Assembly (NCBI GenBank): GCA_963843145.1
Contig: CAWJJC010000027.1
Span: 128,001 to 192,000 of the forward strand
DNA from: an uncultured delta proteobacterium
GTDB taxonomy: Bacteria; Desulfobacterota; RBG-13-43-22
Direction: 5' to 3'
Length of the DNA: 64,000 bases
Made by a program: the position numbers and the translations under genes. Each line of letters starts with the position of its first letter. The stretch's first letter is position 1. Positions 1 to 24,789 of this stretch are shown here, in pieces. The notes beneath the pieces are model-generated. The model was not told where the DNA came from, did no database searches, and saw only the letters and a list, made by a program, of their open reading frames with translations.

Positions 1-616
1 CGATCAGCACCTGCACGGTCGGTGATGCCAACTTTGTCTACACGGCGTTATCGACCGGGCTCGGGAGTTTCACCTTGAGTGCGAGGCAGACGTATGGCAG
101 CTTCGGGCTGGGGAGACTACCCCGTCAGCGTAGATCTGATCGGCGACGTGAACGGCGACGGCCGCAGCGACCTGGTCTGGTCTTCTTCCTATCAATCGGT
201 CGCTAAGACCAACAATAATCAGGTGGTGGTGGGTTTCGCCAATCCCGACGGGAACCTTCCAGCTCGGGTCCGTTCAAAACTTCGGCAGCGCCTGGACGGG
301 CAGCCTGACCCTGGCCGACCTCAACCACGATGGCAAGGCCGATCTGATCTGGAATAACGCTCCCTTAGGTGACACGGATGTGGATACCTATGCGGCCGCC
401 ACGTCGAACGGCGATGGCACGTTCAAGGTCCTGGGACAGGGGGCCGTCTACACCGGCCAGGGGTATTTCCAAATTCCGGAGAGCTTCGACTTCAAAAAGC
501 CGGTCTCCGGCCTGACGCTCGTGTCCACCCGGCAAAATTCAATCAGCAATGCCCTGTTTGTTGTCCATGGCTTCTTGCCGGGAGGGAATGTTTACCTGCC
601 TTTAATACGAAAATAG
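1..616 (+). CDS. 3' part of secreted FG-GAP/VCBS-repeat protein, frameshifted, ends ...VYLPLIRK
   Basis: GDVNGDGRSDLVW and ADLNHDGKADLIW motifs in successive frames (shifts near 95 and 255); runs off window start. Confidence 0.75.
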
Positions 617-835
617 AATCGAGCACCACTTTTTAGGCGTTTTGTTTTTGCCGTCATCCCGGACTCGATCCGGGATCCAGGTGACTCAGGACCTTCACTG
701 CCCTGGATTCCGACCATTCGACAAAGCTCATGGCCCTGAGTAAGTCGAAGGGCGTTCGCCGGAATGACGACCTAATAAATTGAATAAACATAAATTTCCA
801 CGCCTCGGGGTACCCGCTCCGGGCTCCGGGTTACG
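603..835. repeat. Composite REP/MITE-like element family A, copy 1
   Basis: TACGAAAATAGAATCGA left end, GTCATCCCGGACTCGATCCGGGATCCAG...CTGGATTCCG...CGGAATGAC hairpins; similar copies at 29356-29560 and 30777-30975. Confidence 0.7.
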
Positions 836-1101
836 AACGAAAGTGAGCCCCCTTTGAGTCGAACTCTTTTAACCTCCAACTTTAAAGATCAATCCGCCCG
901 GATATACAGTCTTTTCTTTCCTAAAATACATCCTTTACCCCATTCATTTCTACCAGGTAATGATTTAAACTAATAATGACATTAAGTCTGCCCTTTTCAG
1001 AAGTGCGGACTTAACCTTACCCCCCCACTAAGTCATTTGGGGACGTCCCAAAATCTCGTGCTTGGGATTTCCCAATCACCATAAAGCCCACAGGTTTAGG
1101 A

Positions 1102-2349
1102 ATGAAAGGAGAAGAAATGGAAGCCAATCCGTTGATTAAACACCGGTTGTCCGCTAGCCGGCGAGTTCTCCTTTTGCTGGGGACGCTGCTGGCCGGTAAT
1201 TTTTATGTACTTCCTCTGCAGGCGGCCGGGGTGGTCGGCTGCGGCACGCCGGCGAGTTGCACCGAATCGGCCTTCGATACCGCCTTGACCGGCGGCGGCA
1301 GCGTTTCTTTTAATTGCGGCGGTTTGGCGACCATAGCCTTGACCTTTTACAAGCAGATTTCCGTTGACACCACCATTGATGGCGGCGGGAAGATTACCTT
1401 GAACGCCCCGAATACCTACTTCTTCCAGGTTTATGGCGCCAACTCCCTGACCTTGCAGAACATTATCCTGGCCAACGGTTCTTCCAGCATCGCCGGGGCC
1501 ATTGAAAACTTTGGAACGACCACGATTGAAAAGAGTCAATTAGTGAACAACCATTCAAGCAACCATGCCGGCGCCATTGTTAATTACGGCCACTTGGTAC
1601 TGACCGGCAGCACCTTAGCGAACAATCAAGCCGTCAACGGTGGGGGTGCCGTTTATAACGATAGCGGGACGGTGGAGGTGACCGACAGCCTGTTTACGGG
1701 CAACAAGGTCACCGGGCTAACCGGCAAAGGCGGGGCCATCGCGAACATTGGCGGCACCATCACTTTAAACCGGGTAGCCCTGACCGACAATTCGGCGGTC
1801 GACGCCGGGGGCGGGATTTACAGCCTCGATTCCCTCACCCTCACCAATGTGACCCTCAGCGGCAATCAATCCACCACGAATGGCGGCGGCGGGATTTACC
1901 AAGGAAACCACATCGGGTCGCTGAACTTTGTGACGGTGGTCGGCAATAGTGGTACTTTCGGGGCGGGGGTTTACAACGATGGGTCTCTGGGTTCGCTGTT
2001 CCTTCAAAACACGCTCCTTTCGAACAACGCCGGGGGGAACTGTGACGGTGTGATAAACTCGAGCGGGCATAACCTCTCCAGCGACAATAACTGTGGCTCC
2101 GCGTTTACCCAGTCGGGCGACAAGAACAATACCCCGGCCCTCTTGGGATCCCTGGCCGATAATGGCGGCCGGACGCTAACCTACATGCCCCTGCCCCCCA
2201 GCCCGGCCCGTGATGGCGGGCAATGTGTGGTCGGCGTGACCGTGGATCAACGCGGCGCTTTACGACCGGTCGGGGCGGCTTGTGATATAGGAGCGGCGGA
2301 ATACGGGGGCATATTACCGAGGTTGTATTTGCCCCTGATGAAACGCTAA
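1102..2349 (+). CDS. Secreted right-handed beta-helix (Pmp-like GGAI repeats) protein with choice-of-anchor-Q-like C-terminal domain
   Basis: Signal-peptide-like N-terminus ending LQA; GGAI/GAI repeats; C-terminal LADNGG..T...DQRG..R...CDIGAAE; ends LYLPLMKR; start may be 1117. Confidence 0.85.
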   Translation: MKGEEMEANPLIKHRLSASRRVLLLLGTLLAGNFYVLPLQAAGVVGCGTPASCTESAFDTALTGGGSVSFNCGGLATIALTFYKQISVDTTIDGGGKITLNAPNTYFFQVYGANSLTLQNIILANGSSSIAGAIENFGTTTIEKSQLVNNHSSNHAGAIVNYGHLVLTGSTLANNQAVNGGGAVYNDSGTVEVTDSLFTGNKVTGLTGKGGAIANIGGTITLNRVALTDNSAVDAGGGIYSLDSLTLTNVTLSGNQSTTNGGGGIYQGNHIGSLNFVTVVGNSGTFGAGVYNDGSLGSLFLQNTLLSNNAGGNCDGVINSSGHNLSSDNNCGSAFTQSGDKNNTPALLGSLADNGGRTLTYMPLPPSPARDGGQCVVGVTVDQRGALRPVGAACDIGAAEYGGILPRLYLPLMKR

Positions 2350-2369
2350 AGGGTTGTATTTGGTGCGTT

Positions 2370-2490
2370 TTCAAAAAGTTCAAAAAACCTGTCATTGCGA
2401 CCCCGGTCTAGTTCCGGGGGAAGCTTTTCTCTGCCATGGTATCTAGCTGATTCTTGGAGATCGCTTTGTCGCTTGACTCCTCGTAATTCA
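2370..2490. repeat. REP-like element family B (GTCATTGCGA type), degenerate
   Basis: GTCATTGCGA...GATCGCTTTGTCGCTTGACTCCTCGTAAT, similar to 8034-8179 and 33935-34082. Confidence 0.65.
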
Positions 2491-2534
2491 GCCAATATTA
2501 TTTTTAGACCATCAATAAGACTGGAGGGAAAAAG

Positions 2535-4178
2535 ATGGAAACCAGGGCCTTCAGATTCCAAGTGCTAATCATAGTTGGATTGATCGTGGCCACGCTTTGG
2601 TCCACCCCTTCCCTCCAGGCCGCCTCCAACGTCAAATTGAGCGGCGTCATGCCCTCCTTCGGGGACGTTAATTCATTCCAGATCAGTCCGGACGGCCGGT
2701 ATGCCGTCTATCTGGCAGATCAGGACACGGTTGGAGTAAATGAGCTTTACAGCGTCTTGTTAGGAGGGGGCTCCCCCATTCGATTGAATCCCCTTCTTCC
2801 CTCCGGTAGAACCGTTATTTCGTTTTCGATCAGCCCGGACAGCAGCCGGGTGGTATATGTGGCCAACCAAGATACGGCTATGGTCCCAGAACTTTACAGC
2901 GTCCCCATCGGGGGTCCGGCAGCGGCAGTGACCAAGCTTAACGGGGCCGTGGTGGCCGGCGGGAATGTGAGTGCCTACTTTCTGATCAGCCCGGACAGCA
3001 GTCGGGTGGTTTATCGGGCCAACCAACAGACGGCATCTGTCGCTGAATTATACAGCGCCCCCATCGGGGGTCCGGCGGGGTCCGAGGTCAAGCTCAACGG
3101 GGCCCTGGTGGCCGGCGGGAATGTGACTTTCTTTCAGGTCAGCCCGGACAGCAGCCGGGTGGTTTATCTGGCCGACCAACAGATGGATAATGTGGTTGAA
3201 TTGCACAGCGTCCCCATCGGGGGTCCGGCGGGGTCTGGAGTCAAGCTCAACGGGGCCCTGGTGGCCGGCGGGAATGTACTTACCTTTCAGCTCAGTCCGG
3301 ATAGCAGACGGGTGGTTTATGTGGCCAACCAAGATACGGCTACCGTCATTGAATTATACAGCGTCCCCATCGGGGGGCCGGCGGGGTCCGGGGTCAAGCT
3401 CAACGGGGCCCTGGTGGCCGGCGGGAATGTGAATGGCTTCTTTCAGATCAGCCCGGACAGCAGCCAGGTGGTTTATCGGGCCGACCAACAGACGGATAAT
3501 GTCACTGAATTGTACAGCGTCCCCATTGGAGGTCCGGCGGCGGCCGGGATCAAGCTCAACGGGGCCTTGGTGGCCCTCGGGAGTGTTTATAACTTTCAGA
3601 TCAGCCCGGATAGCAGCCGGGTGGTTTATCGGGCCAACCAACATACGGCTACTGTCTTTGAACTTTACAGCGTCCCGATCGGAGGTCCAGCGGCGGCCGG
3701 GATCAAGCTCAACGGGGCCTTGGTGGCCCTCGGGAGTGTTTATAACTTTCAGATCAGCCCGGATAGCAGCCGGGTGGTTTATCGGGCCAACCAAGATACG
3801 GCTACTGTCTTTGAACTTTACAGCGTCCCCATCGGGGGTCCGGCGGGGTCCGGGGTCAAGATCAACGGGGCCCTGGTGGCCCTCGGGAATGTTAATACCT
3901 TTCAGTTCAGTCCGGACAGCAGCCGGGTGGTTTATCAGGCCGACCAAGATACGGCTACTGTCTTTGAACTTTACAGCGTCCCGATCGGAGGTCCAGCGGC
4001 GGCCGGAATCAAGCTCAACGGGGCCCTGGTGGCCAGCGGAAATGTGGGTCTTTTTCAGATCAGTCCGGACAACGGTCGGGTACTTTATGTGGCCGACCAG
4101 GACACAAACGATGTCTTTGAACTCTATATGACGTCCAATTATTTACTCCACTTGCCTCTTATTCTGAGGCAGGGCTAA
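2535..4178 (+). CDS. Secreted TolB/PD40-like beta-propeller protein with ten ~51-aa repeats
   Basis: Signal peptide; 10 copies of FQISPDSSRVVY..Q....ELYSVPIGGP...KLNG; ends LLHLPLILRQG. Confidence 0.9.
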   Translation: METRAFRFQVLIIVGLIVATLWSTPSLQAASNVKLSGVMPSFGDVNSFQISPDGRYAVYLADQDTVGVNELYSVLLGGGSPIRLNPLLPSGRTVISFSISPDSSRVVYVANQDTAMVPELYSVPIGGPAAAVTKLNGAVVAGGNVSAYFLISPDSSRVVYRANQQTASVAELYSAPIGGPAGSEVKLNGALVAGGNVTFFQVSPDSSRVVYLADQQMDNVVELHSVPIGGPAGSGVKLNGALVAGGNVLTFQLSPDSRRVVYVANQDTATVIELYSVPIGGPAGSGVKLNGALVAGGNVNGFFQISPDSSQVVYRADQQTDNVTELYSVPIGGPAAAGIKLNGALVALGSVYNFQISPDSSRVVYRANQHTATVFELYSVPIGGPAAAGIKLNGALVALGSVYNFQISPDSSRVVYRANQDTATVFELYSVPIGGPAGSGVKINGALVALGNVNTFQFSPDSSRVVYQADQDTATVFELYSVPIGGPAAAGIKLNGALVASGNVGLFQISPDNGRVLYVADQDTNDVFELYMTSNYLLHLPLILRQG

Positions 4179-4265
4179 CAGGAGATAACCTGTTTGAAAA
4201 TATTAGTTTAATACTGGTCAATTCGGTTAAATCGGCAATCACCCAAATACCAGGAGGAGAAAGTA

Positions 4266-6043
4266 ATGGAAAAACAAGGAGCAAAAGGAAAAAAAGTTCT
4301 TCGATGGATTGCAGGGGGTCTTATTTTGATGTTGGGCAACTTCTTCCTGGATGGCAGACCTTCAGGCCGCCGGCACGGTCGGTACCGGGACTTCGGCCAG
4401 TTGCACCCAATTAGCGCTCACAACGGCCCTGACCGGGGGCGGCACGGTTACCTTCAACTGTGGAGGCGCCGGAGACAATTCTGGTTATCCCCAGCCGGAT
4501 GAACATTACAGCGGACACGGTTATTAAAGGCGGAGGGGTGATCACCCTCAGCGGCGGGTTAAACAACGGCCTGTTTTACGTGATGGCCCCGGCCTCCTTG
4601 ACGCTGAACGATATTACTCTCGATAGCGCTTATGCCGCCACGGATGGGGACGGCGGTGCCATTCGGGCCAGCGGCCCATTGACGCTGGATAATGTTACCA
4701 TTCAAAATAGCCAGACCACCGACGTTTATTGCGGAGGAGCGATCTGGTCCAATGGGGAGGTCAACATTTCCAACAGCCTCTTTAAGAACAATACAGGCGG
4801 AAATGGCGGGGCGATCTGCACCGGGCAATTTGACACAACCCGGTTGCAGGTCACCAACAGCGGTTTCAGCAATAACCAGGCCGTCTCAACCGTCAATGGC
4901 TTTGGCGGCGCGATCTTTGTAGCCGGTTCGGTGGCGGAGGTGACGATCGCTGACAGCGGTTTTACCGGCAACACTGCCCGCTTCGGCGGTGCGCTGGCCG
5001 TTTATACGGGTGGAACCGCGACTATCCGCGGGGCAAGCCCCCTGAATCCCGTCTCTTTCATCAGCAATTCGGCTACGCAGGAGGGCGGCGCGATCTGGAG
5101 TCAGGGTACGCTGAAGGTTTATAATGGTAACTTTTTAACGAACAAAGTTCCTTTAAACGTCGCGGGCTATGGCGGCGGTATCGCCAGTTACGGCGGCGTG
5201 ACACTTTGGGACAGTTCCTTCGTCTTCAACGAGGGTCGTTACGGCGCCGGGCTCTTTGTCGGCAATAAAGCGAGCGGCTCAGCGGCGGACGTGCGACGAA
5301 CGCTTTTCAATCTGGGTAATGCTTTGGAAGGCGGCGGTATCTATACTAACGACACCAACGCGTTCGTCACCGTCTCGGATAGCGTATTTAGTAGTAATAC
5401 CGCCGCCGAGGGCGGCGGACTGGCGCGCTTTAACTCGAGGGTGGACATATCGAATTCGTCGTTTACGGACAATGCATCTACAAATGATGGTGGTGGTCTA
5501 TGGATCACACACGGTCCCGCCAACACCCAAGACCCTAGCTTTGTGAGCCTGACTAGCGTGACCATCGGCCGGAACACGGCGAACCCCGGTCTTAAACACG
5601 GCGGTGGTTACTATAATCAGGGCATTAGCGTGTTGACAAACGTCACGATCAAAGACAACACGAATGGCATTTATAATACCGGGTTGTCTCAACTGAATAT
5701 TTACAACACCGTATTGGACAATCCGAATTCGCTCAATTGCGATGGCGGCACGCCTCTCACCTTGGGCGGTCACAATCTGTCTACGGACATGAGTTGCGGG
5801 GTTGAACAGAACAATGTAACTGTCCAGCTCTTCGGTCCACCGGCCCTCAATACCAATGGCATTAATCAAACCCTCTATTACCCGCCGCTGGCGGGCAGCC
5901 CGTTGATCAATGGGGCCGCCAATTCCCAAAATTGTCCAATGTTGGACCAGCGCGGGGCCGTCCGTCCTGATGCCTGCGACATCGGAGCGGTTGAATATGG
6001 CGGACTGGCCTGGAGCACCTTCCTCCCGCTTATCAAAAGATGA
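4266..6043 (+). CDS. Beta-helix/choice-of-anchor-Q-like secreted protein, paralog 2 (two apparent 5' frameshifts)
   Basis: RBS AGGAGGAG before ATG 4266; LQAAGTVGTGTSASC..FNCGG in an alternate frame; ORF 4460-6043 has GGAI repeats and DQRGAVRPDACDIGAVE; ends TFLPLIKR. Confidence 0.8.
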
Positions 6044-6132
6044 GGAAAAATCCAAAAAGGTTTAGATTATATGGTAACCATTTTGGTGAGAGTGGAAATG
6101 ACATAAAACCGACATCCAGGAGGGAAAGAACT

Positions 6133-7988
6133 ATGAAATTGCAATCATCATTAAATAAAAAGGTCTTTCGATGGGCAGTAGGGGGTCTGTTTTTAATGTT
6201 GGGCATCATCTTGGGCATCACGTCGCTTCAGGCCGCCGGTACGGTCGGTACCGGGACTTCGGCCAGTTGCAACCAAGCGGCGCTCACAACGGCCCTGACC
6301 GGGGGCGGGACGGTTACCTTCAACTGTGGAGGGACATTGGCCACCATTCCGTCATCAGCCAGATCCCCATCACCCAGGACACGGTCATTGAAGGAGGCAA
6401 CCTGGTCAAGATCGACGGTGGGCTGGTCACCCGTTTCTTTGATATCCCCGGTTCCCAGACGTCTCTGACCTTAAAAGACATTATCCTCGCCAGTGGCTAC
6501 AGCAGGGAAGCGGGGGCGGCAACGGCGGAGCCATCCGGAGCGCGGGGACGCTGACACTCAATAACGTCACCATTCAATTCTGCCAAACCAAGGGGTACGG
6601 GGGAGCGGTCTATTCCAGTGGCCCCATGATCGTCTCCAACAGCACCTTTAACGATAACACCTCGACCTCGTCCGGCGGGGCGATCTATTCCGAAGGGACT
6701 TTGACTGTCTCCCAAAGCACCTTTGACAAGAACACAGGAGTCATCGCCGGCGGGGCGATCTGCACCGGAGTGCCGCCTTCCAACCGATTGCAGGTCACCA
6801 ACAGCACCTTCACCAACAACAAGACCACCGATGCCACCTACGGCTATGGCGGTGCGATCTTTGTGAGCGGACCGATAGCGGAGGCGACCATCATTGACAG
6901 TTTTTTCCGACAGCAATTCTGCAAAGTTAGGTGGCGGGCTGACCGTTTGGACCGGTGGCACGGCCACGCTCCGCACCCAGAATCCCTCCATCCGAAATGC
7001 ATTTCTAGTCAACTCCGCCACCCAAGACGGCGGGGCGATTTATAATGTGGGGACACTGGACATTTACGGGGCGGATCTGAACAATAACACGGCGCCTCAA
7101 AACACCGGCGGGATAGGCCACGGCGGTGCGATCGCCAATACCGGCAATCTGAAGCTTTACGATAGTCAATTGACCTTCAACAAGGGGCGTTTTGGCGGTG
7201 CGCTTTTTGTCGGCATTATCCCAAGCGCCCAGGCGGATGTGCAGACGAACAATTTTCAGTGGCAACGATGCGAGTGAATTCGGCGGCGGTCTCTGTACTG
7301 GCGATGCCCTATTTAATACCGGTGCAACCGTTACCGTGACCGACAGTGTGTTTCGTAACAATACGGCGGTGGTCAACGGCGGGGGAGCGTATCGCTTCAA
7401 CGCGCTTCTGGAAATTTCTAATTCGTCATTCACGGACAACCAGGCTGGCAGGAGTCGGAGGCGGCTTATATAGCGGAGCCAGCGTTCCGGACCCCGCCCG
7501 GTAAACGCCACGAGCGTGACCTTTGGCGGGAACACGGCGGGCAGCGGTCATGGCGGCGGCATTTATACCTCGGGCTACAGCACCTTGAAAAACCTCACCA
7601 TCAAAGACAACACCAACGGTCTGTTCAATGCCGGCAACTTCGTGACGACCCATTTGGGAAACAGCATTCTGGAAAATCCGGGATTCCTCAATTGTGACGG
7701 CGGCGGCGTACCGATCAGCCTGGATGGGCACAATCTTTCCTCCGACAGCAGTTGCGCGGTGGAAACAAATGGGACGCCCGCTCAGCTCGGTCCCCGAGTG
7801 ATTAATGCCAATGGCATCAATGTAACCCGTTATTACCCGCCGCTGGCCGGCAGCCCCCTGATCAACCGGCGGCCGGTTGTCCCACCCTGGATCAACGCGG
7901 CGCCTCGCGGCCTGACGCCTGCGACATTGGCGCGGTTGAATACGGCGGGCTGGCTTGGAGCACATTCCTCCCTCTTATCAGAAAATGA
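6133..7988 (+). CDS. Beta-helix/choice-of-anchor-Q-like secreted protein, paralog 3 (multiply frameshifted; error or pseudogene)
   Basis: ORF pieces 6040-6468, 6171-6554, 6626-7045, 6894-7277, 7192-7473, 7516-8031 are collinear with paralog 2; final frame CDIGAVEYGGLAWSTFLPLIRK*, TGA 7986-7988. Confidence 0.75.
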
Positions 7989-8033
7989 TGAGCGGCCGAA
8001 AGCGTCCAAGCGGATACCATTCCATTATTGATG

Positions 8034-8179
8034 GATTCGCAAAAAGTCCCCAGCGCTGTCATTGCGAGGAGTGAAGCGACGAAGCAATCCCCAAGAATCA
8101 GCTAGTTACCATGGTGGGGATTGCTTCCCCCGGATCAAGTCCGGGGTCGCAATGACAGGTTTTTGGATTTTTTGCGAGG
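8034..8179. repeat. REP-like element family B
   Basis: TCGCAAAAAGTCC..GTCATTGCGAGGAGTGAAGCGACGAAGCAATCCCC...GGGGATTGCTTC...GCAATGAC..TTTTTGCGA; near reverse complement of 33935-34082. Confidence 0.85.
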
Positions 8180-8333
8180 TTGTCCATTATTAACGGTCTC
8201 ACAACTAAAACAACCTTCATGCCAGTACACAGATTAATCTTGGACCCCGGCCATTCGACAAAGCTCATGCCCCTTCGGCAGGGCTTCGGCGAGATCAGTC
8301 GAGTCGCTCAAGGCCATGAGCTTTGTCAAAAGT

Positions 8334-8461
8334 ATTTATGAATTGTATGGTGTTCCCCTGGGGGGACCGGCAGCGTCTGGATTCAAGTTGAACGGTATCC
8401 TGACCCCCGTATGACCTCCGAATATTTGCTCCACCTGCCTCTGATTCTGAGGCAGCAATAA
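8334..8461 (+). pseudogene. Collapsed remnant of the beta-propeller gene
   Basis: IYELYGVPLGGPAASGFKLNGIL followed in another frame by MTSEYLLHLPLILRQQ* (8411-8461), matching the C-terminus of 2535-4178. Confidence 0.75.
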
Positions 8462-8462
8462 A

Positions 8463-8642
8463 AGGAAGCGAAATAACCATGGGCCGTTTGATTTATTGAT
8501 CGTTTGCGGGATTATGCTGGCTACGCTGGCGCCGATAAACGTGGTGGCCAATACCTACGTCGTGAACAGCCCCGCCGATCCGGCTGTGACCCGGACATTC
8601 AACGTTTCAAGCAATTTGTTCCTGCCACTGATCCTTAAGTAG
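8463..8642 (+). pseudogene. Mini-gene/remnant: signal peptide + short N-terminal strand + LFLPLILK tail
   Basis: Open frame RKRNNHGPFDLLIVCGIMLATLAPINVVANTYVVNSPADPAVTRTFNVSSNLFLPLILK*; in-frame ATG 8514; TAG 8640-8642. Confidence 0.55.
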
Positions 8643-8662
8643 AAAGAAAGGATATTTCCATT

Positions 8663-8974
8663 ATGGAATTCGCCCTGCTGCTTCTGGTCTATGGATTGTG
8701 CATCGCGCTCACCAGTGTCCTCTGGGCGTACCCGGCGGCCTTGACGGGTTGCTACGTTCTCGTCAGCATCCTCACGCTGATCAAATGGCACACCAGGGCC
8801 GACGTGGTCTCCTTCGCCGCTGCTGCCATTCTTGGACCCTTGGGCGAGGCGGTTGCCGTTCACTCTGGGGCCTGGACCTATACGAAATCCAGCTTCTTGA
8901 TTCCCCTGTGGCTACCTCTGCTGTGGGGAGTTGCCGGCTTGTTTCTGAGAAGAATTGCCTGGATTATGAGTTGA
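8663..8974 (+). CDS. Small integral membrane protein, DUF2878/INSIG-like
   Basis: About 4 hydrophobic segments; GPLGE..V..GAWTY....IPLWLPLLWG pattern. Confidence 0.6.
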   Translation: MEFALLLLVYGLCIALTSVLWAYPAALTGCYVLVSILTLIKWHTRADVVSFAAAAILGPLGEAVAVHSGAWTYTKSSFLIPLWLPLLWGVAGLFLRRIAWIMS

Positions 8975-9046
8975 AAACCACTTTCGTAGCTCCCAACCAG
9001 ACAGCTCTGGAGCAGATCTTAGCTTCGAAGAGCGGCAGGAGGAAAA

Positions 9047-9496
9047 ATGCGTAAACCATTTATGAGGGAAATTTTATTGCTGATGCTGTTGGGCGGGTTG
9101 GTCCTGTTTGGGCAGCGGGTTTCCGCCACGATCACTTCGCTGCCCATGTCCAATCCCTTTTGTTTTCAGCCCGATCCTTCAGTCAACCAGTGTTTGATCA
9201 ATGTCCGTTCCTGGCAGGCGAACGATAACGGGGTGGGGAACATCTTGGCCTATGTCAATTTTTCGATCGACAATAAACTGCGTTACCGGTCAAACGCGTT
9301 TTTTGAGAATAATATCGCCTACAGCTTTGACATGATCCCCGGGGGAATCAAGGTGACCTGTGGGTTACCCAACGAAGGTGGGTTCGGATCGTTGTACGGC
9401 AAGGCCTATACCGTCGATGTCAAGGCCTATGATATCACCAACACTTGGGTCCTCGACGATCAATTGCAAGTAAAATGCCCCGCTTACAATCCTTAA
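9047..9496 (+). CDS. Secreted hypothetical protein with 4 conserved Cys, paralog A
   Basis: RBS AGGAGG; signal peptide; collinear similarity to 9445-9975. Confidence 0.75.
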   Translation: MRKPFMREILLLMLLGGLVLFGQRVSATITSLPMSNPFCFQPDPSVNQCLINVRSWQANDNGVGNILAYVNFSIDNKLRYRSNAFFENNIAYSFDMIPGGIKVTCGLPNEGGFGSLYGKAYTVDVKAYDITNTWVLDDQLQVKCPAYNP

Positions 9497-9975
9497 GCAT
9501 AAGCGCAGATCGCCAGCGGCTTCGGCGAACCTTTTTTCTATGGCTTGGCCTGATCACGGTCTTGCCGTTTCCCGGCGAGCTCGCCCAGGCCGCTTCGGTC
9601 ACCGTCCAGATGAGTAACCCGTCCTGTGTTCAGGTCCTCCCGGCGGACGGGACGTGTTCGATTCAGGTGGGCAACGTGATTGCCTCCGGCAGCGACCAAA
9701 CCTTTTCGCGGCTCGAAGTCCTGATGAACGGCAAGTTGCGAATTTACATGGGCGGCTTCTTTGAAGCGTCAGCCGATCTCACCCACTCTATGGTGCCGGG
9801 CGGCCTGTCCGTTGCCTGCGGCAGGCCAAACGATGGTGGGTTGGCCAACTACGGCAGGTCGTATTTATTAACGGCGAACGCCTATATGGGGGATGGTACT
9901 TCGGCTTCCTCTTCCACGACTGTTTTCTGCCCGGCTTACGATGGGAAGACCTTTCTTCCGTTAATTGAAAAATAG
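9445..9975 (+). CDS. Secreted hypothetical protein with 4 conserved Cys, paralog B, ends TFLPLIEK (true start uncertain)
   Basis: MSNP.C.Q..P....C.I.V...KLR...FFE...M.PGG..V.CG.PN.GG...YG..Y...CPAY shared with paralog A; RR + hydrophobic + AQA signal. Confidence 0.7.
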   Translation: MGPRRSIASKMPRLQSLSISADRQRLRRTFFLWLGLITVLPFPGELAQAASVTVQMSNPSCVQVLPADGTCSIQVGNVIASGSDQTFSRLEVLMNGKLRIYMGGFFEASADLTHSMVPGGLSVACGRPNDGGLANYGRSYLLTANAYMGDGTSASSSTTVFCPAYDGKTFLPLIEK

Positions 9976-10003: not shown

Positions 10004-10501
10004 ATGAATCCTGGAAGGAGTCTAATCGCCATTATCTTCGCCATCGTTATCGCCGGCGTGCCTGCAAACCTGACCTTTGCCGCCGACAACCAGGTCAAAG
10101 GCACACTGACTTACCGGACGTACTCGGTAACGCTCAAATACGCCTGGCTAGTGAAGGGTCCTAATGAGAGGGACCCGGGGAAGACGATTCGCCGCCTGAT
10201 CCTGTCCGCCGACGACATCGGCGCCAAATTGCAGGCCTGTGAGACCCTATCCTGCGCGAGCGGCCAGGTGACCGAGGGAATGACGGTGGACTTCGATGCT
10301 CCGCCACGTCTCGGCTACTGGTTGGCGCTGAACGGCCAAAAGGTCCAATATTCCTTCGGCGCTATGCCCGAGGCGTTCAAGGCGCGCGTAGACAAGGCCG
10401 AACATCTCGCCGGTAAACTGGCGTTCGACGACGTCGCGGCCGGCGGTCCGAAGGTAGACGTCGATTTCGACCTCACGCTATTCAAGGAATTCAAATTGTG
10501 A
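10004..10501 (+). CDS. Secreted hypothetical protein
   Basis: RBS GGAGGG before ATG 10004; signal peptide ending TFA; no family recognised. Confidence 0.65.
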   Translation: MNPGRSLIAIIFAIVIAGVPANLTFAADNQVKGTLTYRTYSVTLKYAWLVKGPNERDPGKTIRRLILSADDIGAKLQACETLSCASGQVTEGMTVDFDAPPRLGYWLALNGQKVQYSFGAMPEAFKARVDKAEHLAGKLAFDDVAAGGPKVDVDFDLTLFKEFKL

Positions 10502-10504
10502 TAT

Positions 10505-10650
10505 AGTCGTAGAAAGTCTCCAGACTTGTCATTGCGAAGAGTGAAGCGCTGAAGCAATCCCCAATAATTAGCTATTTACCAAGGTGGGGAGTACTTCCAC
10601 CGGATCAAGTCTGGGGTAGCAATGAAAGTTCTTGGACCTTTTCCGAAACC
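10505..10650. repeat. REP-like element family B, degenerate
   Basis: GTCATTGCGAAGAGTGAAGCGCTGAAGCAATCCCC...GCAATGA. Confidence 0.7.
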
Positions 10651-11088: not shown

Positions 11089-11169
11089 CAGGAAATTTTT
11101 CCTGCCATCGTTTCTAAATCCGTTTACCTTAAAGTAAGGAATATTATAGTAGTAATGAGAAAGAGGGAC

Positions 11170-11439
11170 ATGGCCACCCTGACCAGCAAGGGGCAGGTAA
11201 CCATCCCCAAAGTTGTACGGGATTCCCTGCAACTGCGGGCCGGCGACAAGGTAGAATTCGTCCTCTCCGACGAGAAAGAGGCCCTTTTCCGACCGATCAC
11301 CAAAAAAGTTGATGAGGTCTTCGGTCGACTATACCGCCAAGGCACAAATGCTGTTTCCGTTGAACAAATGGACGCCGGCCTTAAACGAAAGATGCGGGTT
11401 TTTCAGCCGGGTCCAATGAACAAGCGTCGACTATTTTAG
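11170..11439 (+). CDS. AbrB/MazE/SpoVT-family antitoxin-like DNA-binding protein (no cognate toxin downstream)
   Basis: ATLTSKGQVTIPKVVRDSLQLRAGDKVEF. Confidence 0.85.
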   Translation: MATLTSKGQVTIPKVVRDSLQLRAGDKVEFVLSDEKEALFRPITKKVDEVFGRLYRQGTNAVSVEQMDAGLKRKMRVFQPGPMNKRRLF

Positions 11440-11452
11440 TCCGGAAAATTTT

Positions 11453-11764
11453 TTATCTTTCAAATAGCGCTAAACTTAACAGACGGGCACTGTGTAGAAC
11501 GCGCAGGATAAGGACCCTGGAGCCATCGATTCTGAAAACAGTTCTGTACGGGCCATAGATAATATGACGATATTCCCTTCCTAATTCCGTTGATTCCGGT
11601 ATGACCGGGCATCGCAGAGGATATCGTTCCAGGGAATCGATTTGTCGTTCTAATTCACTCACCAATCTGTTGGCCGCCGCCTCGTTGTCCACCGCGATAT
11701 AGTGGAAGATTTCTCTCAGGTCAGATTCAGCGGTGGCAGTAATCTCAACGCGATACTTTGGCAT
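11453..11764 (-). CDS. RelE/ParE-family toxin
   Basis: YRVEITATAESDLREIFHYIA...YRTVFRI....LILRVLHSAR. Confidence 0.85.
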   Translation of the reverse strand: MPKYRVEITATAESDLREIFHYIAVDNEAAANRLVSELERQIDSLERYPLRCPVIPESTELGREYRHIIYGPYRTVFRIDGSRVLILRVLHSARLLSLALFER

Positions 11765-12030
11765 TCTTCCGGAACTCCTTCAGGAAATCCCGGGCCCCCC
11801 CGGGTACGACCTTCACGGATATCGACTTCCGCCTCAGCCAGCAAATTGCCCAGGTTTAGCGATTTCAATTTTCTTTCAAAAACTTCCACCTCCAATAAAA
11901 CGGCATCCGGCCGGCCATTCACGGTAACGATAATTGGACGGCCCGTCTGGTGCATTTGTCTAAAGATTTCATTGGTTTTCTTCTTAAGCTCGGAAACCGA
12001 CTTTATGTCTTCGGAAATACTCAAGGCCAT
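11716..12030 (-). CDS. Phd/YefM-family antitoxin (3' end probably frameshifted)
   Basis: DIKSVSELKKKTNEI...GRPIIVTVNGRPDAVLL; directly upstream of the toxin. Confidence 0.85.
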   Translation of the reverse strand: MALSISEDIKSVSELKKKTNEIFRQMHQTGRPIIVTVNGRPDAVLLEVEVFERKLKSLNLGNLLAEAEVDIREGRTRGGPGFPEGVPEECQSIALRLLPPLNLT

Positions 12031-14124: not shown

Positions 14125-14518
14125 ATGACTATTATGCCATTCAAAGAGGGAACTGATGAAATTTTGGTTAAACCGGTGCCCGCGGATCCAGTCGAAGCCG
14201 CTTGCGGATCCATCGAAGGGGATTTCTCCCTAACCGCCGATCTGCTGGTTGAACGCCATAAGGATAAAAAAAGTGAATCCTTCGGTTATCCTCGACCGTT
14301 TCGCCCTGCTGGGTCAGTTCCCGATTAGTATTCTTCCGGTGGATGATCCCTTTGTCCGCGAAGCCGCCGAAATCAAGTCCGGACACCCCATCGCTTACGC
14401 CGACGCCTTCTGCACGGCCCTGGCCCAACGCCATCAGGGGCGGGTCTTGACCGGGGACCCGGAGTTCAAGACGGTAGAGAAATTAGTCGCCATCCAATGG
14501 CTGAAGGGCCGGAATTAA
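14125..14518 (+). pseudogene. Degraded AbrB-type antitoxin/VapC (PIN) toxin pair
   Basis: VKPVPADPVEAACG..DFSLTADLL (antitoxin C-term-like), then AAEIK....YADAF..ALA.....LTGDPEF (PIN C-terminal half); N-terminal parts missing. Confidence 0.65.
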
Positions 14519-15691: not shown

Positions 15692-15982
15692 CTAAACCAC
15701 CAGCGGGTCTTCCAGATCATATCCTTTTTTGGCTCCCACGTGCTCCATCCGGCGTTTCCAGTTGGACCCCAGGAAATAGAATCGCAGGCTGTCCTGTTCC
15801 GGATTAATCTCTTTGATCAACCGGTCTCGAAAAAAGGCCCAGCGCGCGGGATCCACGGAGCATTCGAATACCGAATACTGCACCCGCTGGCCGTTATTTT
15901 TGCAGACCTTGGCCACCCGGGCCAACCGGCGCCGGCCTTCCGGCTCTATCGTGGAAACATCATAGCTGACAACGACCATCAT
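15692..15982 (-). CDS. cas2: CRISPR-associated endonuclease Cas2
   Basis: VVSYDV...RRLARVAKVC...GQRVQYSVFEC...DSLRFY. Confidence 0.95.
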   Translation of the reverse strand: MMVVVSYDVSTIEPEGRRRLARVAKVCKNNGQRVQYSVFECSVDPARWAFFRDRLIKEINPEQDSLRFYFLGSNWKRRMEHVGAKKGYDLEDPLVV

Positions 15983-16024
15983 AATCAGTCACCATTTCCG
16001 CTTGGGGCTGCGGCTATAGAGCTT

Positions 16025-16130
16025 TTTCACCGCCGAGTCGCTGAGTTCGCCGAGGAATTTTTTTCCTGAAATCGGGAGATACCGATTTCAGGAAACCTCA
16101 CGGCCTGCGGCACAGCCTTTATTTCTTTTG
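16025..16130. repeat. Palindromic intergenic element family C
   Basis: TTTCACCGCCGAG..GCCGAG + hairpin CTGAAATCGG..CCGATTTCAG + CCTGCGGC; related to 17228-17320 and 32578-32665. Confidence 0.6.
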
Positions 16131-16175
16131 CTTCCATCTCCCCTCTTCCCTCTTCCATCTTTTTATTGATTCCCT

Positions 16176-17208
16176 TTACTTCCATAAAAATGGCGGATAA
16201 CCATCCAGGTCACCGCGAATATGCCGCGCCAGGAGCATGGCCTGGAGATGAGGCAGCAGACCCATAGTAACCTTTTCTTCCAAGAAAGGATGGACGAGTT
16301 CATCCTGTTTCCTTTTCTGATAAGCCACCAGGACGGTTTTTCTGGTCTCGTCATCCATGAGCACCGCGCCATTTTCTTTAGTGGTGAAGCCTTTCTTCTG
16401 AACCTGGTTGAGATTAATCAAGGAAAGGGCCAGACGATCGGCAAAGACCGGCCGAAACTCCTCCATCAGGTCGAGGGCCAAACCCGGACGGCCCGGTCGA
16501 TCCCGGTGCAGAAACCCCACCGCCGGATCGAGCCCCACGCACTCCAGGGCGGAACGCACATCATGCATCAACAGAGTATAGAGAAACGACAACAGGCAAT
16601 TAACCCGGTCCAATGGCGGACGTCGGTTTCGCTCGGCAAAGGTAAAATCCCCCTTCTGGGAAAGGATCAGGTGATCGAAGACCCCAAAATAGGTATGGGC
16701 CGCCTCCCCCTCGATGCCGCGAAGCACATCGAGGGATGTGTCGCCTGATAACGCCTGAAGATTGTACTTTAAGCGCTCATAAGCCGACCGAACCTCATCC
16801 TCATTAACCTTCGCCGAATGATCCCGGAGCGTTCGGCCCAGGACCGATCGGCAATTGGCCACTTTACCGACGAGGATGGACCCGGCCATCCGGGCCGATT
16901 GAGCCTCATCGTCGGCCCAACGGTACTGCTGCCTCCTAAGGAGTACATTTCCGGAGACCGGCCCCTGAACCCGAGCCAAAAAACGGCCATGCTCTGAAAG
17001 GAAGCTGAGGCTCACCCCCTGCTCGGCGCAAAAACCCATCAGAAAAGGGCTGCAGGAAACCTGGCCGAAGCAGACGATCCCCCCGATGGTATGGATCGGG
17101 AGCTGCAGGAGGATCTCCTTCTCCGCTCTTGACCACCACAGTTTCCCCCTCCTTGGAGAGGTAGGCCCCCTGGGTGGTGACAAATAGGGTATTTAAGTGT
17201 TTTTTCAT
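16176..17208 (-). CDS. cas1: Type I-C Cas1 (frameshift near 17128)
   Basis: [26 protein letters not shown] then [46 protein letters not shown]. Confidence 0.93.
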
Positions 17209-17227
17209 GGCAACACCGTTTAAAAAC

Positions 17228-17320
17228 TTTTCACCGCAAAGGCGCGAAGGGCGCAAAGGGAATCATCTTCTGGAAAATCGAAGAAAGCCCGATTTTCCAG
17301 AAACCCCTCAACCTGCGGCG
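17228..17320. repeat. Palindromic intergenic element family C
   Basis: TTTCACCGCAAAGGCGCGAAGGGCGCAAAG + hairpin CTGGAAAATCG..CGATTTTCCAG + CCTGCGGC. Confidence 0.6.
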
Positions 17321-17361
17321 CTTCATTCGATTCAAATCTCATCACACGATGATTCGTCTTG

Positions 17362-18004
17362 TCAATCTTTCAGGTCCTTCAGCGCAGTCGAAAGATAACG
17401 TTTTATGTCCCTTTTCCGGCCTAAGGACTGGGGCAGGCAAACCTCGATCAGGGAACATTGTTTGCATTTTTTTCCATAAACGGCCGGCGGGGTTATTCCA
17501 GCATCCAGGAGTTTATGGACCCCGGCGGCCGTTTCTTCGGTTGTTTTCCTCAATTCCGGTGAAAAAACTACGTCATGGCGACGTCTGGTTTTTCCATAGA
17601 AAAGGGCGCCCTCCGGGACCTCGACGCCGATCATTTCCTCCAGGCACATGGCCTGGGCGCAAAGCTGGACCTCATCGCAATGGTCCGGCTTGGGCTTTCC
17701 CCGCTTGTACTCCACCGGAAAAGGCCTCCACCCGCCTCCAGGCTGCGGATGAAATTCCACCACGTCGGCCACCCCTACCAGCCCGAGCCGGAGAGAGCGC
17801 AACGAAAGGCCTCGCTCGATTCTCGCCCCGGCCCGGGTCTCCCCTTCCTGCTCGTGGACCCGCTCGTGCAGGATGCGGCCCTCAGCGGTCCAGCGATTTT
17901 CCTCCCACACCTGTTCGATATGAATCAAGGCGCACTGGCGCTCGCAGAAGGCAAAATGCTGCAAGGCCGAGAGCATGATCAGGTTGTCTTCGGTAGTAGC
18001 TCAT
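17362..18004 (-). CDS. cas4: Cas4 (in-frame from 17976; probable 5' frameshift)
   Basis: LSALQHFAFCERQCAL, ADVVEF, PVEYKRG, QLCAQAMCLEE, C..CSL..C Fe-S cysteines. Confidence 0.93.
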
Positions 18005-18597
18005 GGCCCCTTCCAGGGTCCCCGGGCCTGGGTCCGGGTCCGGTAAAGCCTTTCGGTAAAGCCGCCCTCCTTTAAAAAGGCTTTCTCCAGCGCCCGAAGC
18101 TGCTGGTCCAGCAGGTAGTTGGTCTGGTGGATCAGGCAGACCATGGTGTTGGCGGCCACTTCTGCCGAGCCCTCTTCAAGATAGGTCTTATAGGTCAAAT
18201 AGGACCTATCTTGAGCATAGCAGAGCTTTCTGACAGCTTTGGCTTGGGAATGATCCTTGCCCCAGAGGGGCAGGCCCTTTTGCCGCAAAAAATCCTTGAA
18301 ATCCACCAATAGTTCTTCCAGGCTGGCCCGGGCCACACCAACCAGCTTCAGCTCGGTCTTCTTGGAGGTGCCGGAGGCCTGGCTGCCTTCAGCTATATTC
18401 TGCTTGCCGCTGCGCGCCGCCTGGGCCATCTGATCGTGCGTGCGGGAACGGCGAGAGATGAAACGGTCGCAGAAAAATACGGCGCCGTCATAGACGATCT
18501 CGGCCATTTTGAAGGACTGGAGATCCTGGTAACCGCCGTGGGGAGGGATGAGGGCGGAAGGGGCGTTGGGAAGTTTGTTTCCGGAATGGGCTGCCAT
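18001..18597 (-). CDS. Four-helix-bundle (23S rRNA IVP-like) protein with suffix domain
   Basis: HGGYQDL...RTHDQMAQAARSGKQNIAEGSQASGTSKKTELKLVGVARASLEELL...EGGFTERLY. Confidence 0.88.
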   Translation of the reverse strand: MAAHSGNKLPNAPSALIPPHGGYQDLQSFKMAEIVYDGAVFFCDRFISRRSRTHDQMAQAARSGKQNIAEGSQASGTSKKTELKLVGVARASLEELLVDFKDFLRQKGLPLWGKDHSQAKAVRKLCYAQDRSYLTYKTYLEEGSAEVAANTMVCLIHQTNYLLDQQLRALEKAFLKEGGFTERLYRTRTQARGPWKGP

Positions 18598-18644
18598 TGG
18601 TTTACAGGGCCTCCTTGGTTTAGGGGAATTATCAGCTTTAATCC

Positions 18645-19205
18645 TCAGTAAATGCAAAACCTACACCAACTGCCCTTGGCTTTGGCGATCTCGGCGGTCA
18701 GGATGGCGTATTCTTTCTCCTGCCGGACCTCCCGATTTCTCCACTCTTCGGTCAATTCCTCCCGGATGGCGATCCCGCGCATCCGTTTTTCTATCCAGTC
18801 ATCGGAGTAGCCCTTGGCCTTATAAAGCGCCCGGGTCCTCTTCGTTCCCAACTCGGGATCTTCTATCTCTTGCACCCGCTCGTACCCCACCTTGGCCAGC
18901 CAACGCTTGAAGGGTTCCGCCTTAGGGGAAGGAATAGACTGAATAATGCGGAAAACGCCTTCGGTATTGGCGCAATCGGTTTCCCTCAGCTTCCCATCCG
19001 AGGCGGTCAACTTCAACCCGTGACAAAATGTCACGACTTCACTTCCTTCTTCATTGAGCCTTTGCTTTAATTTTCTCCAATAGGCCCCTGCATCGACGCT
19101 TCCCGTCAAAACGGCACAAACATCGACAATCGAAAACCACCATTCATTCTTATGGATCGTTTTTCGGATTTCCTTGCCTTTGAAAACAGCTATGTTTGTC
19201 TCCAT
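18645..19205 (-). CDS. BRO-N (phage antirepressor-like) domain protein, apparently C-terminally truncated
   Basis: FKGKEIRK...WWFSIVDVC...YWRKLKQRL...RIIQSIPSPKAEPFKRWLA. Confidence 0.85.
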   Translation of the reverse strand: METNIAVFKGKEIRKTIHKNEWWFSIVDVCAVLTGSVDAGAYWRKLKQRLNEEGSEVVTFCHGLKLTASDGKLRETDCANTEGVFRIIQSIPSPKAEPFKRWLAKVGYERVQEIEDPELGTKRTRALYKAKGYSDDWIEKRMRGIAIREELTEEWRNREVRQEKEYAILTAEIAKAKGSWCRFCIY

Positions 19206-19217
19206 TTACTGATATCC

Positions 19218-20106
19218 TCAGATTTTTTCCTCAATAGATACCCCTTGAGGAGGATTATCTTTTAGAACGTGGACTTGATAGTCAGAAAAAGCCCTTGCCG
19301 GGGTTGAAACATCAGTCGCTCGGTTGACCTTAACAAAATCAAATAGTTTATGCGCTGGGGCGTTCCCCAGGGCGGAGTCATGTTTAAAGACAATCAATTT
19401 CCGGGCGTTCATTTTTCCCCGGGCAGCCGAATGATCATGGTCAAACATGTTAATCAAGGCATCCCACAATATTGATAGGTCGTCTTCTGAAAAACCAGTT
19501 TGAGCGGCAAGATGGGCTGAGATATATCCCTCGGCACGGTAGAGGGCGTAGGGGACGATGTGTTTTCTGCCCATAGTTCGGTTGTCACCGCTTTGTTGTT
19601 CGGCTTCTTTTTCAGTGGCAACCGCCATTCGAGTAATGCTTATCTCCATAGGGACAATGGACTCTAAACTTCGTGCAAAATTCAATTGAACAGGACCACG
19701 GACTTGACCACAATTAACCCCCGTAGACATAACGGCTCCAAAGGTCCTTACATCATAAAAATTATCACACATCCACTTCTCGGGCATTTTCTACCTCATC
19801 GCCGGTTCCTTTGCGTTTCTTACCCTCCCCTTTATCTGCAACTCCGACAGCCTTATGTGCTCTCTCATGAGTCTGGTTGAGGATGGCCTTCTCCCGAATA
19901 TAAATTTCATAAGGGGATTGACCACCTTTCACGATCTCAACAAAATTCCTGATTTTTCTCTTTAAACAGACATCGGTCACTAACCCAAAACTTGTTTCCG
20001 GATCAATACGAGGCATATTGCCGGCATCAGGGTCACCATTAGGGTTTCCGTTTTCGACATCAAAGAGATAAACAAATTCGTAGCGACTTTTAATAGATTC
20101 GTTCAT
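19218..20106 (-). CDS. cas7: Type I-C Cas7/Csd2 (frameshift near 19785)
   Basis: [32 protein letters not shown]; [32 protein letters not shown]. Confidence 0.93.
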
Positions 20107-20110
20107 TTTA

Positions 20111-21817: not shown

Positions 21818-22464
21818 CTCTTCACCTCCTCTCCATTTAAGGTGGGTATTTCAATTATTCCCTCCCTCATAACCGCTCTGAAGAACTTGGCCTCCATTTT
21901 ATTATCAAAATCAATGTCGTGCAGCATCCAACCCAAATCCTTCTCCCCCTGATGCACAGACGGCGGCACATCCTCCGCCGCCTCAAACTGGGCCGGGAAC
22001 TCCCGGCAGCCCAGATAAGGTCGATGGAAACACTGCCCCTTGGCGGCCCGGCGGTCGAACATCTCCTTATGCTTGGCCGGGTTGTTGTCTTCCGAACCGC
22101 TGAAATCGAAATGGGCGTCGATGACATAAGCAACATCTCGCAGGATCATGGCGGCCCGCTGCTGCCGATCTTCTTCAATGAAAACCTCAACGGGGGATCG
22201 GCCATCTTTCATCGCTTTTTTAACCGTTCCGACACCCAATTTACCAGCCAATTCATTCCGCCGAATGTTGTCGAAACGGATCGGATTAAGCACATGGATT
22301 CGATCAATCACCCATTGAATAGCCGGTTTCCAGTAAATGGCCTCCAGCACCCCCCGGGCCGCCGAAGGGGTCATCACATCATAACTGACTCGTTCCACTT
22401 TCATCTCGGGGCGGGTAAAACAAGCGTAATTACCCCATACCTTCAATTTAATTCCGTAAGCCAT
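21814..22464 (-). CDS. cas5: Type I-C Cas5c
   Basis: [38 protein letters not shown]. Confidence 0.96.
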
Positions 22465-22514
22465 CATCTCACCTCCCTTCTCTCGTCATTTTTGGATTAG
22501 ACTCCCTTAAGGAG

Positions 22515-24711: not shown

Positions 24712-24789
24712 AGTTGGTCCCTTCACTTTTGAGGTTTCCCGGCCCAACGGTTCGCGGGACGTCTGGGCTACATACCCCCCCTACCCTCC

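Follow-up and report, generated by a model that had tools for sequence, protein, structure and literature searches.

YLP-box-type tags at the free ends of exported proteins in a diderm deltaproteobacterial genus

Many exported proteins of an uncultured deltaproteobacterium end in the same short peptide. We analysed a stretch of 64,000 nucleotides from its genome (G000; GenBank assembly GCA_963843145.1), namely positions 128001-192000 of contig C27 (CAWJJC010000027.1). We call this whole stretch the window. Eight reading frames at the beginning of the window share the peptide as a C-terminal tail, and these eight tails are very probably the YLP-box, a motif curated as a 'putative sorting motif'. 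On balance, and with moderate confidence, we think that a diderm genus uses the YLP-box on a large scale, that the tag has a lateral origin and that it is read by docking.

Identity of the eight tails

The first-pass annotation of this DNA had claimed eight co-oriented tails. All eight are present on the plus strand, as the list of open reading frames (ORFs), a six-frame scan of the genome and a codon listing agree. With the end of the stop codon in brackets, they read VYLPLIRK (616), LYLPLMKR (2349), LHLPLILRQG (4178), TFLPLIKR (6043), TFLPLIRK (7988), LHLPLILRQQ (8461), LFLPLILK (8642) and TFLPLIEK (9975).

Initial scans against NCBIfam and Pfam named domains in the carriers and nothing on the tail. 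A tail search of NCBIfam at a maximum E of 10 returned two models. NF053834 (ultrashort_CTERM, 10 positions, cut-off 10) gives 13.0 bits for the tail at 616 and 12.3 bits for the tail at 7988. NF050076 (sort_motif_YLP, 11 positions) gives 11.3 bits for the tail at 616, short of the 15 bits set as cut-off. The description of each model reads 'YLP-box putative sorting motif-containing protein'. The tails had been put forward as an undescribed signal, a claim that was to fall if an existing hidden Markov model explained the motif. These two models match the tails and thus the signal is not undescribed. Literature searches on the YLP-box, on choice-of-anchor domains and on C-terminal sorting signals of Chloroflexota found no paper on the tag by title or abstract.

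Tails across the genome

We searched the motif [YFH]LP[LM][IVLM].[KR] in all 103,316 stop-to-stop frames of at least 30 amino acids in the genome (7,796,170 residues). It occurs 66 times; 46 copies end 0-3 residues before the stop codon, 33 of them directly at the stop. From the internal rate (20 per 7.8 million residues) about one copy is expected in the last four positions, compared to the 46 observed. With a somewhat wider expression, 61 frames on 13 contigs bear a tail, grouped in islands that hold at most 10 of them, and a few of the 61 seem to be due to chance. We estimate that G000 has about 50 real C-terminal tails. The window was first described as a special island; with about 50 such tails spread across 13 contigs, it is not. 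At the DNA level, a degenerate pattern that encodes aromatic-L-P-L-[IVM]-x-basic-stop matches 37 times in G000, compared to a single match for the reversed control pattern.

All six leucine codons and all four proline codons are in use in the tails. The DNA downstream of the tail stops is unrelated, except between recent paralogs. Because codons vary and 3' flanks are unrelated, the tail is conserved at the protein level. Genome-wide, the carriers span PD40, PMP/beta-helix, FG-GAP, Laminin_G_3, DUF7948 with SBBP, fn3 and NosD. Hence the earlier proposal of a protein-level tag on unrelated exported proteins is borne out by both codon variation and varied carrier families. Carriers of at least four folds had been counted in the window. 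Three of these folds have names (FG-GAP, beta-helix and PD40 propeller) and stand; the fourth carrier, a Cys-rich protein, belongs to no family.

Enrichment on secreted proteins had been named as a check, and the enrichment is there. A signal-peptide-like N-terminus is found in 18 of the 31 called tail genes, compared to 1234 of 5010 in the whole gene set, and most of the other carriers are truncated at the N-terminus. Signal peptides were scored throughout with a hydrophobicity rule of our own, not with SignalP.

To place the tail in a structure, we ran AlphaFold2 on the carrier encoded at 1102-2349, with an alignment of 25 tail-bearing homologs. The model is a confident beta-helix (pLDDT 89.8, pTM 0.85) in which residues 405-415 have a pLDDT below 50 and no secondary structure. 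As modelled, the tail would be a free peptide and not part of the fold. L and P are invariant in the 25 aligned carriers, which are 30-49% identical to the first sequence.

A tail that lies just 5-10 residues past the last domain could be a final beta-strand in each fold, or a DNA cassette present in many copies could give all these genes a common 3' end. We find such a structural or DNA artefact hardly credible. Disorder in the AlphaFold2 model contradicts a final strand, and unrelated folds carry the tail. The codon listing contradicts the cassette; the 3' flanks are unrelated as well, and the intergenic repeats lie outside the tails.

The architecture of the tail also upholds an earlier negative claim. 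There is no transmembrane (TM) helix, and the tail is neither LPXTG nor PEP-CTERM nor the terminal-aromatic signal of the beta-barrel assembly machinery (BAM). The last residue of the tails is K, R, G or Q and not the aromatic one of the BAM beta-signal, and the modelled carrier is a soluble beta-helix.

The motif behind signal peptides

The tag had been described as C-terminal. It is not strictly so, as the same motif also occurs behind the signal peptides of secreted enzymes. In called genes, four of the ten internal matches of the strict motif directly follow a signal peptide. For a relaxed motif we counted matches over 633 proteins, again scoring signal peptides by our own rule. The 21,640 residues that lie up to 35 amino acids past the hydrophobic core hold 9 matches, compared to 10 in the other 132,573 residues (binomial p 5e-4). 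The N-terminal copies score 11.5-12.5 bits with NF053834 and up to 14.6 bits with NF050076, the same range as the C-terminal tails.

The N-terminal carriers are two GDSL esterases, a TIGR03768 metallophosphoesterase, an EXLX1-type expansin and several unknowns, and the motif follows 2-10 residues after the signal-peptide cleavage site. The loci in G000 are L123 (C2:91019-91843), L124 (C20:224370-225182), L126 (C10:257497-260148), L125, L127, L128 and L129.

Among 28 GDSL homologs (34-92% identity), 26 keep the same order of signal peptide, 2-5 residues, [YH][LFI]P-hydrophobic-hydrophobic-x-K/R/N and catalytic block. The two without the motif are truncated at the N-terminus, and all seven more distant homologs are without it too. 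By reading the sequence, with no family scan, we find housekeeping genes next to the GDSL gene. GDSL homologs carry the motif in the host genus (g1) and in genus g201 of the same family. In the sister genus g2 (G316) and in G026 from another family, the signal peptide runs straight into the GDSL block. Hence the presence of the tag depends on lineage rather than on protein family.

Of the 120 best expansin homologs, 115 have WLP[LMVI][VMIL]; it lies about 8 residues behind the signal peptide, with a median of 15 residues between motif and domain. Among those homologs one is labelled Desulfobacterota and one Chloroflexi, and none has a C-terminal tail. Across 61 relatives, the expansin is found only in g1 (G000, G307 and G169) and g201 (G308).

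Taxonomic distribution

We scanned about 455 genomes with the DNA pattern, and G000 has the most strict tails of all. Among 301 genomes sampled evenly from its phylum, G000 is the only one with at least ten matches. G169, from the same genus, has 6 compared to 1 for the control, G078 has 5 compared to 1, and the rest resemble the controls. G306, also from the same genus, has 23 matches and no control match. A second sample of 151 genomes was taken from the phylum of an Anaerolineae record, the Chloroflexota. Nine of these have at least ten matches (22 at most), with no more than two control matches each. This genome is a new, unusually rich YLP-box user, and its diderm lineage was not expected.

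We aligned seven G000 paralogs and scanned named genomes with the alignment, which gave 78 loci. YLP-type tails occur in 28 of them: 24 are from Chloroflexota, one is unlabelled and three are labelled delta proteobacterium (L017, L019 and L035). The last three lie in genomes that agree with the same-genus genomes G169 and G306 in match counts and coordinates. YLP-type tails are absent from all 20 loci labelled as other phyla. The first-pass annotation had stated that such tails are frequent in Chloroflexota, and both the 24 loci and the nine tail-rich genomes agree with this.

Full-length BamA is encoded in all five family genomes tested. The window itself goes on to encode LptG, Lon, GreA and Liv transporters, and a TolC-like gene shares one contig with tail genes. 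Because of BamA, LptG and the other genes, and the contig shared with a TolC-like gene, the tails belong to a genuine diderm genome and not to mis-binned contigs.

Within the family, tails are found in all four genomes of g1 and in g201 (G308). The sister genus g2 has a homolog of the beta-helix family in 1 of 14 genomes, and two copies there end in leucine-rich tails without proline. These are loci L099 and L115 of G031, which end in NLFLLLL and VYLLLLSSD. The ends could be a degenerate tag, a different terminal tag or chance. In G078, which belongs to another family of the same phylum, two of the five matches (contigs C83 and C90) read FLPLVKR and FLPLIRK directly before the stop. YLP tails may have a second, small foothold in the phylum in G078.

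Probable lateral origin

The tree of the beta-helix family has 96 rows of up to 238 residues that end at the CDIGAxEY block. Tail columns were left out, and four duplicate or overlapping rows were dropped. We used a quick IQ-TREE search, with SH-aLRT as the only support values and no root. The window protein at 4460-6043 and its copy in G306 form a clade with three Chloroflexota YLP proteins (SH-aLRT 99). A G169 copy pairs with a Chloroflexota protein (SH-aLRT 100), and five G000 paralogs lie next to this pair (support 92). The g2 copies and those from elsewhere in the phylum fall outside these groups. As a label on the tree, the tail changes 15 times, compared to 29.5 times with shuffled labels.

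Judging from these sequences, the host genus most likely obtained genes for YLP-tagged surface proteins laterally from Chloroflexota-like donors and then multiplied them in islands rich in mobile elements. The islands of G000 are bordered by transposases of the IS200, IS110, ISL3 and ISAzo13 types, integrases, a group II intron, toxin-antitoxin pairs and CRISPR-Cas. Contig C28 begins with a rearranged duplicate of the island in the window. Import into a diderm host had been suggested before, and it fits the phylum sampling, BamA and the grouping in the tree.

Search for a reader

If the tag is a sorting signal, something may read or process it. In the first-pass annotation no processing enzyme had been recognised in the window. 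Our scans agree: no sortase, exosortase, rhomboid or other sorting enzyme was found by Pfam in 133 proteins around the G000 islands or by NCBIfam in the rest of the window.

Single families were then compared between three tail-using genomes (G000, G169 and G306) and two non-using ones (G138 and G316). Sortase (PF04203) is absent from all five, and the positive control matched in three known genomes. PrsW is also absent from all five, and C13 is absent from the tail-using genomes tested. C25 (PorU-type) gave no match in the five genomes, but neither did its control search. Exosortase (PF09721) is present in G000, G306 and G316 and is not found in tail-using G169 (94% complete) or in G138. Caspase-like C14 occurs in G000 and G306 only. 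Since tail-using G169 has neither exosortase nor C14, these two do not track the tag. ATPases of type II secretion systems and type IV pili number 5-6 in users, compared to 7 in non-users. Sortase and PrsW are therefore excluded as general readers, provided that the tails are functional here.

The genes around the tags add little to this picture. The only neighbours enriched at YLP loci are SARP- or XRE-NB-ARC-TPR regulators (8 of 28 YLP loci compared to 1 of 50 others, where the loci are not independent). A PrsW-like membrane protein recurs in four syntenic Chloroflexota loci. A second Omp85 protein was considered as a reader and rejected; it is an ordinary TamA beside TamB.

The searches bear directly on covalent sorting, where a transpeptidase or protease would cut in or just after the motif and join the protein to the wall or to lipid. 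In N-terminal tags such a cut would take off a short propeptide. An enzyme pocket would explain the invariant L and P in 25 carriers, as in LPXTG or PEP-CTERM, and in locus L033 YLP tail and PEP-CTERM interchange after the choice-of-anchor Q domain. The 0-3 residues that follow the motif could suffice, as asparaginyl-endopeptidase ligases need a leaving group of only 2-3 residues. Nevertheless, we regard covalent sorting as doubtful. No TM helix holds the substrate at the membrane, and no conserved enzyme gene lies beside the tagged genes in the 78 loci. The tail-using genus yielded no sortase, PrsW or C13, and exosortase and C14 are missing from the nearly complete G169. Furthermore, sortase logic applied to an N-terminal tag would anchor a few residues and release the enzyme. 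More generally, the N-terminal placements argue against any mechanism that needs a free carboxylate or a C-terminal leaving group.

We tentatively propose non-covalent docking, to which we give somewhat less than an even chance. The tag would be a linear peptide without structure on one free end of the exported protein, usually at the extreme C-terminus and sometimes, in enzymes, at the mature N-terminus. After Sec export an envelope receptor or scaffold would bind the tag non-covalently. This receptor would hold otherwise soluble proteins at the cell surface, and no sortase-type enzyme would read the tag. A wider version of docking seems to us possible rather than probable: the YLP-box may be a position-independent terminal docking peptide whose reader is common to the monoderm Chloroflexota and to g1 and g201, which would have acquired adhesin-like proteins, exoenzymes and the reader laterally.

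Alternatively, there may be no reader at all. The peptide would then be an intrinsically sticky end that partitions into a membrane leaflet, a sheath or a hydrophobic surface, and tagged genes would be functional at once after a transfer between phyla. Such an end would work on either side of the chain, and it runs from an interfacial aromatic residue to a basic one. It would also agree with the failure of neighbourhood and family searches to find machinery, and with tagged genes that apparently crossed between monoderm and diderm phyla. Seven residues are very short for stable membrane binding, however, and the all-or-none use by lineage fits a lineage-specific reader better. The invariant L-P core is more specific than hydrophobicity demands and hence suggests a specific protein reader rather than mere stickiness. 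For these reasons a sticky end appears unlikely to us.

Carrier genes and frame breaks

All carriers in the window lie on the plus strand, and three of the eight are unbroken. The first of these (1102..2349) encodes an exported beta-helix protein of 415 amino acids with PMP repeats and a choice-of-anchor Q domain (residues 347-401; NF041518, E 2.5e-18) ahead of the tail LYLPLMKR. The second (2535..4178) encodes an exported PD40 beta-propeller protein of 547 amino acids (PF07676, E 4e-19) with the tail LHLPLILRQG. Within it, 2814-4197 consists of eight head-to-tail units of 153-159 nucleotides with a DNA identity of 77-86%, which points to recent internal repeat expansion or homogenisation. The third (9445..9975) encodes the exported Cys-rich protein of 176 amino acids, with the tail TFLPLIEK. 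A same-genus genome (locus L019) holds a copy that ends in TFLPLIQR. An exported paralog at 9047..9496 (149 amino acids, 32-34% identity) has no tail and ends in CPAYNP; it is a natural tail-less comparison for 9445-9975.

The other five carriers are incomplete at the window edge, shift between frames or survive as short remnants. At 1..616 lies the 3' part of an FG-GAP gene (PF01839, E 6e-7) that starts beyond the window edge and appears as frames 79-357 and 152-616. Its tail VYLPLIRK is encoded at 593-613, with the stop at 614-616. A beta-helix gene with choice-of-anchor Q domain (4266..6043) is spread over three frames: 4266-4502, which includes the signal peptide, then 4351-4527 and 4460-6043, which ends in TFLPLIKR. 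Its paralog at 6133..7988 is in at least five frame pieces, has NF041518 on its last 60 amino acids, ends in TFLPLIRK and shares direct repeats (D3, D4 and D7) with 4360-5910. The ORF at 8342..8461 is a remnant of the 3' end of a PD40 gene (39 residues, tail LHLPLILRQQ; direct repeat D8, 79% identical to 4118-4183). Another remnant of 48 residues (8496..8642, tail LFLPLILK) has an end that resembles that of a 785-amino-acid PMP protein in the duplicate island on C28.

Two earlier claims about the carriers are supported. A choice-of-anchor Q domain does precede the tail, according to the NCBIfam scan and the paralog alignment. Carriers with a visible N-terminus do begin with signal-peptide-like sequences: we find these by the hydrophobicity rule in 1102-2349, 2535-4178 and 9445-9975, and by eye in the frame-broken 4266-6043 and 6133-7988.

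Broken carriers raise the question whether the tails are functional here. They could be a relic, functional only in Chloroflexota and inert on imported, decaying genes in this host. Five of the eight window carriers are broken or fragmentary, the islands are full of mobile elements and no reader was found, as a relic would predict. Nonetheless, a relic is very unlikely in our view. Tails are kept in all four g1 genomes and in g201, and tails of paralogs differ mostly by synonymous changes. The GDSL esterases keep the N-terminal tag at 34-92% identity in a housekeeping neighbourhood.

Furthermore, assembly errors may account for many of the breaks. Housekeeping and defence genes are split in the same way: fdhD (L004:14342-15183) into two ORFs, and likewise L002:10269-12071 and 22515-24747 of the window. 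We also compared 4200-8700 with contigs from four soil-metagenome runs of one study, which cover 7-17% of sampled words. One soil contig of 180 nucleotides, with seven other letters different, is without one base at 4468. By frame arithmetic, the frames at 4351 and 4460 would become one without this base. In another soil contig an additional A follows 7499. Accordingly, some of the breaks come from assembly errors or are specific to a strain, and the assembly probably carries indel errors. As housekeeping genes are also split and the break at 4468 is absent from an environmental contig, we do not read the frame breaks as pseudogenes.

The window contains further genes and repeats around the carriers. 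A multi-helix membrane protein of 103 amino acids (8663..8974, plus strand) has an 85% identical copy in the duplicate island on C28; it was seen solely in these two islands and matches no family. Outside the window, an Lcl_C (DUF1566-type) protein and an exported YLP-tailed protein of about 180 amino acids (FLPLILKSS or YLPLVLRPS) occur as a pair twice (L005:2018-3532 and L009:8828-10587).

REP/MITE-like repeats lie in the gaps after tail genes, at 2374-2487, 8019-8173 and 10489-10598, and also at 704-748 and 8241-8330. Between 2374-2487 and 8061-8173 the repeat arms are 51-54 nucleotides long and 88-89% complementary, and a direct copy of 110 nucleotides lies at 10489. Soil contigs cover 8055-8093 very deeply, and many of their loose ends fall there. 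Hence the repeat element is widespread.

Toxin-antitoxin genes lie directly past the island, at 11155-12030 and 14249-14518, with a MazE-like antitoxin, an overlapping ParE/Phd pair and a PIN-domain fragment. They are followed on the minus strand by a type I-C CRISPR-Cas locus (15692-24747) with cas2, cas1, cas4, cas7, cas8c, cas5c and cas3. There cas3 is in two ORFs and cas7 is truncated, and BRO-N and 23S-IVS-like proteins lie between cas4 and cas7.

Discussion

Several observations weigh against the explanation that we favour, a laterally acquired YLP-box read by docking. On identity, the NCBIfam models report two of the eight window tails, and the other six stay under HMMER filters or thresholds. 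Given these filters, this is expected for models of 10 positions. The N-terminal enrichment comes from few counts (9 compared to 10) and a crude signal-peptide rule of our own. The WLP variant of the expansin is reported by neither NCBIfam model, and its equivalence to the YLP-box is a judgement by regular expression.

On origin, identity to the Chloroflexota proteins is just 30-42%. As the tree is unrooted, a transfer from Chloroflexota to the deltaproteobacterium, rather than the reverse, is suggested by distribution alone. Many carriers look frame-broken, and some may be dead genes.

On mechanism, ORF clustering of the 78 loci with 10-kb flanks and of 663 G000 proteins found no envelope receptor or enzyme that is shared near the tags. 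Only the position of the tag, its disorder and the absence of known sorting enzymes point to docking. Nor does docking explain how a Sec-exported protein passes across the diderm outer membrane or makes use of it.

In filamentous Chloroflexota that are abundant and for the most part uncultured, the YLP-box is found on large sets of surface and secreted proteins. Our analysis adds that the tag works, or is at least maintained, behind an outer membrane. Because g2 lacks the tag on homologous proteins, g1 and g201 versus g2 form a natural gain and loss experiment in which the reader could be found by subtraction. This clean contrast between closely related users and a non-user, together with the N-terminal placement, makes the search for a reader tractable. 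If a reader is found, the tag could predict the surface proteomes of these groups and serve as a very short display tag. The N-terminal placement and the contrast between user and non-user sister genera are possibly new observations, although the NCBIfam model descriptions may already mention either.

Comparison with known systems

Like the LPXTG signal of sortases, the tail is a short proline-containing motif near the C-terminus of Sec-exported, adhesin-like proteins, and it occupies the same slot after choice-of-anchor domains. Unlike LPXTG signals, the tails have neither a TM helix nor a basic cytoplasmic tail, 0-3 residues follow the motif, and sortase is found in none of five genomes. PEP-CTERM, read by exosortase, is also a signal on surface proteins of diderm bacteria, and in locus L033 it takes the place of the YLP tail after the same choice-of-anchor Q domain. 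However, the tails lack the PEP motif, the TM helix and the Arg cluster, and exosortase does not track the tag. Type IX secretion does not fit as a signal, because its C-terminal domain is folded and about 70-100 residues long, whereas the YLP tag has 8-10 residues and is disordered in the model.

Ultrashort terminal peptides and beta-strand docking motifs with known receptors do exist: the peroxisomal PTS1 signal -SKL, the endoplasmic reticulum signal -KDEL and the TonB box. They resemble the YLP-box in logic only, with few residues, a free end and unrelated cargo; they are read non-covalently and can be transplanted, and they belong to eukaryotic or periplasmic systems.

The curated YLP-box itself differs from what we describe in three respects. 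Here the host is a diderm deltaproteobacterial genus and not a member of the Chloroflexota, its strict tails outnumber those of every other genome among the roughly 455 scanned, and the motif also occurs at the mature N-terminus. Otherwise the likeness is extensive: the consensus aromatic-L-P-hydrophobic-hydrophobic-x-K/R, direct matches that reach the NF053834 cut-off, the position at the extreme C-terminus, the presence on unrelated proteins with signal peptides and the many carriers per genome.

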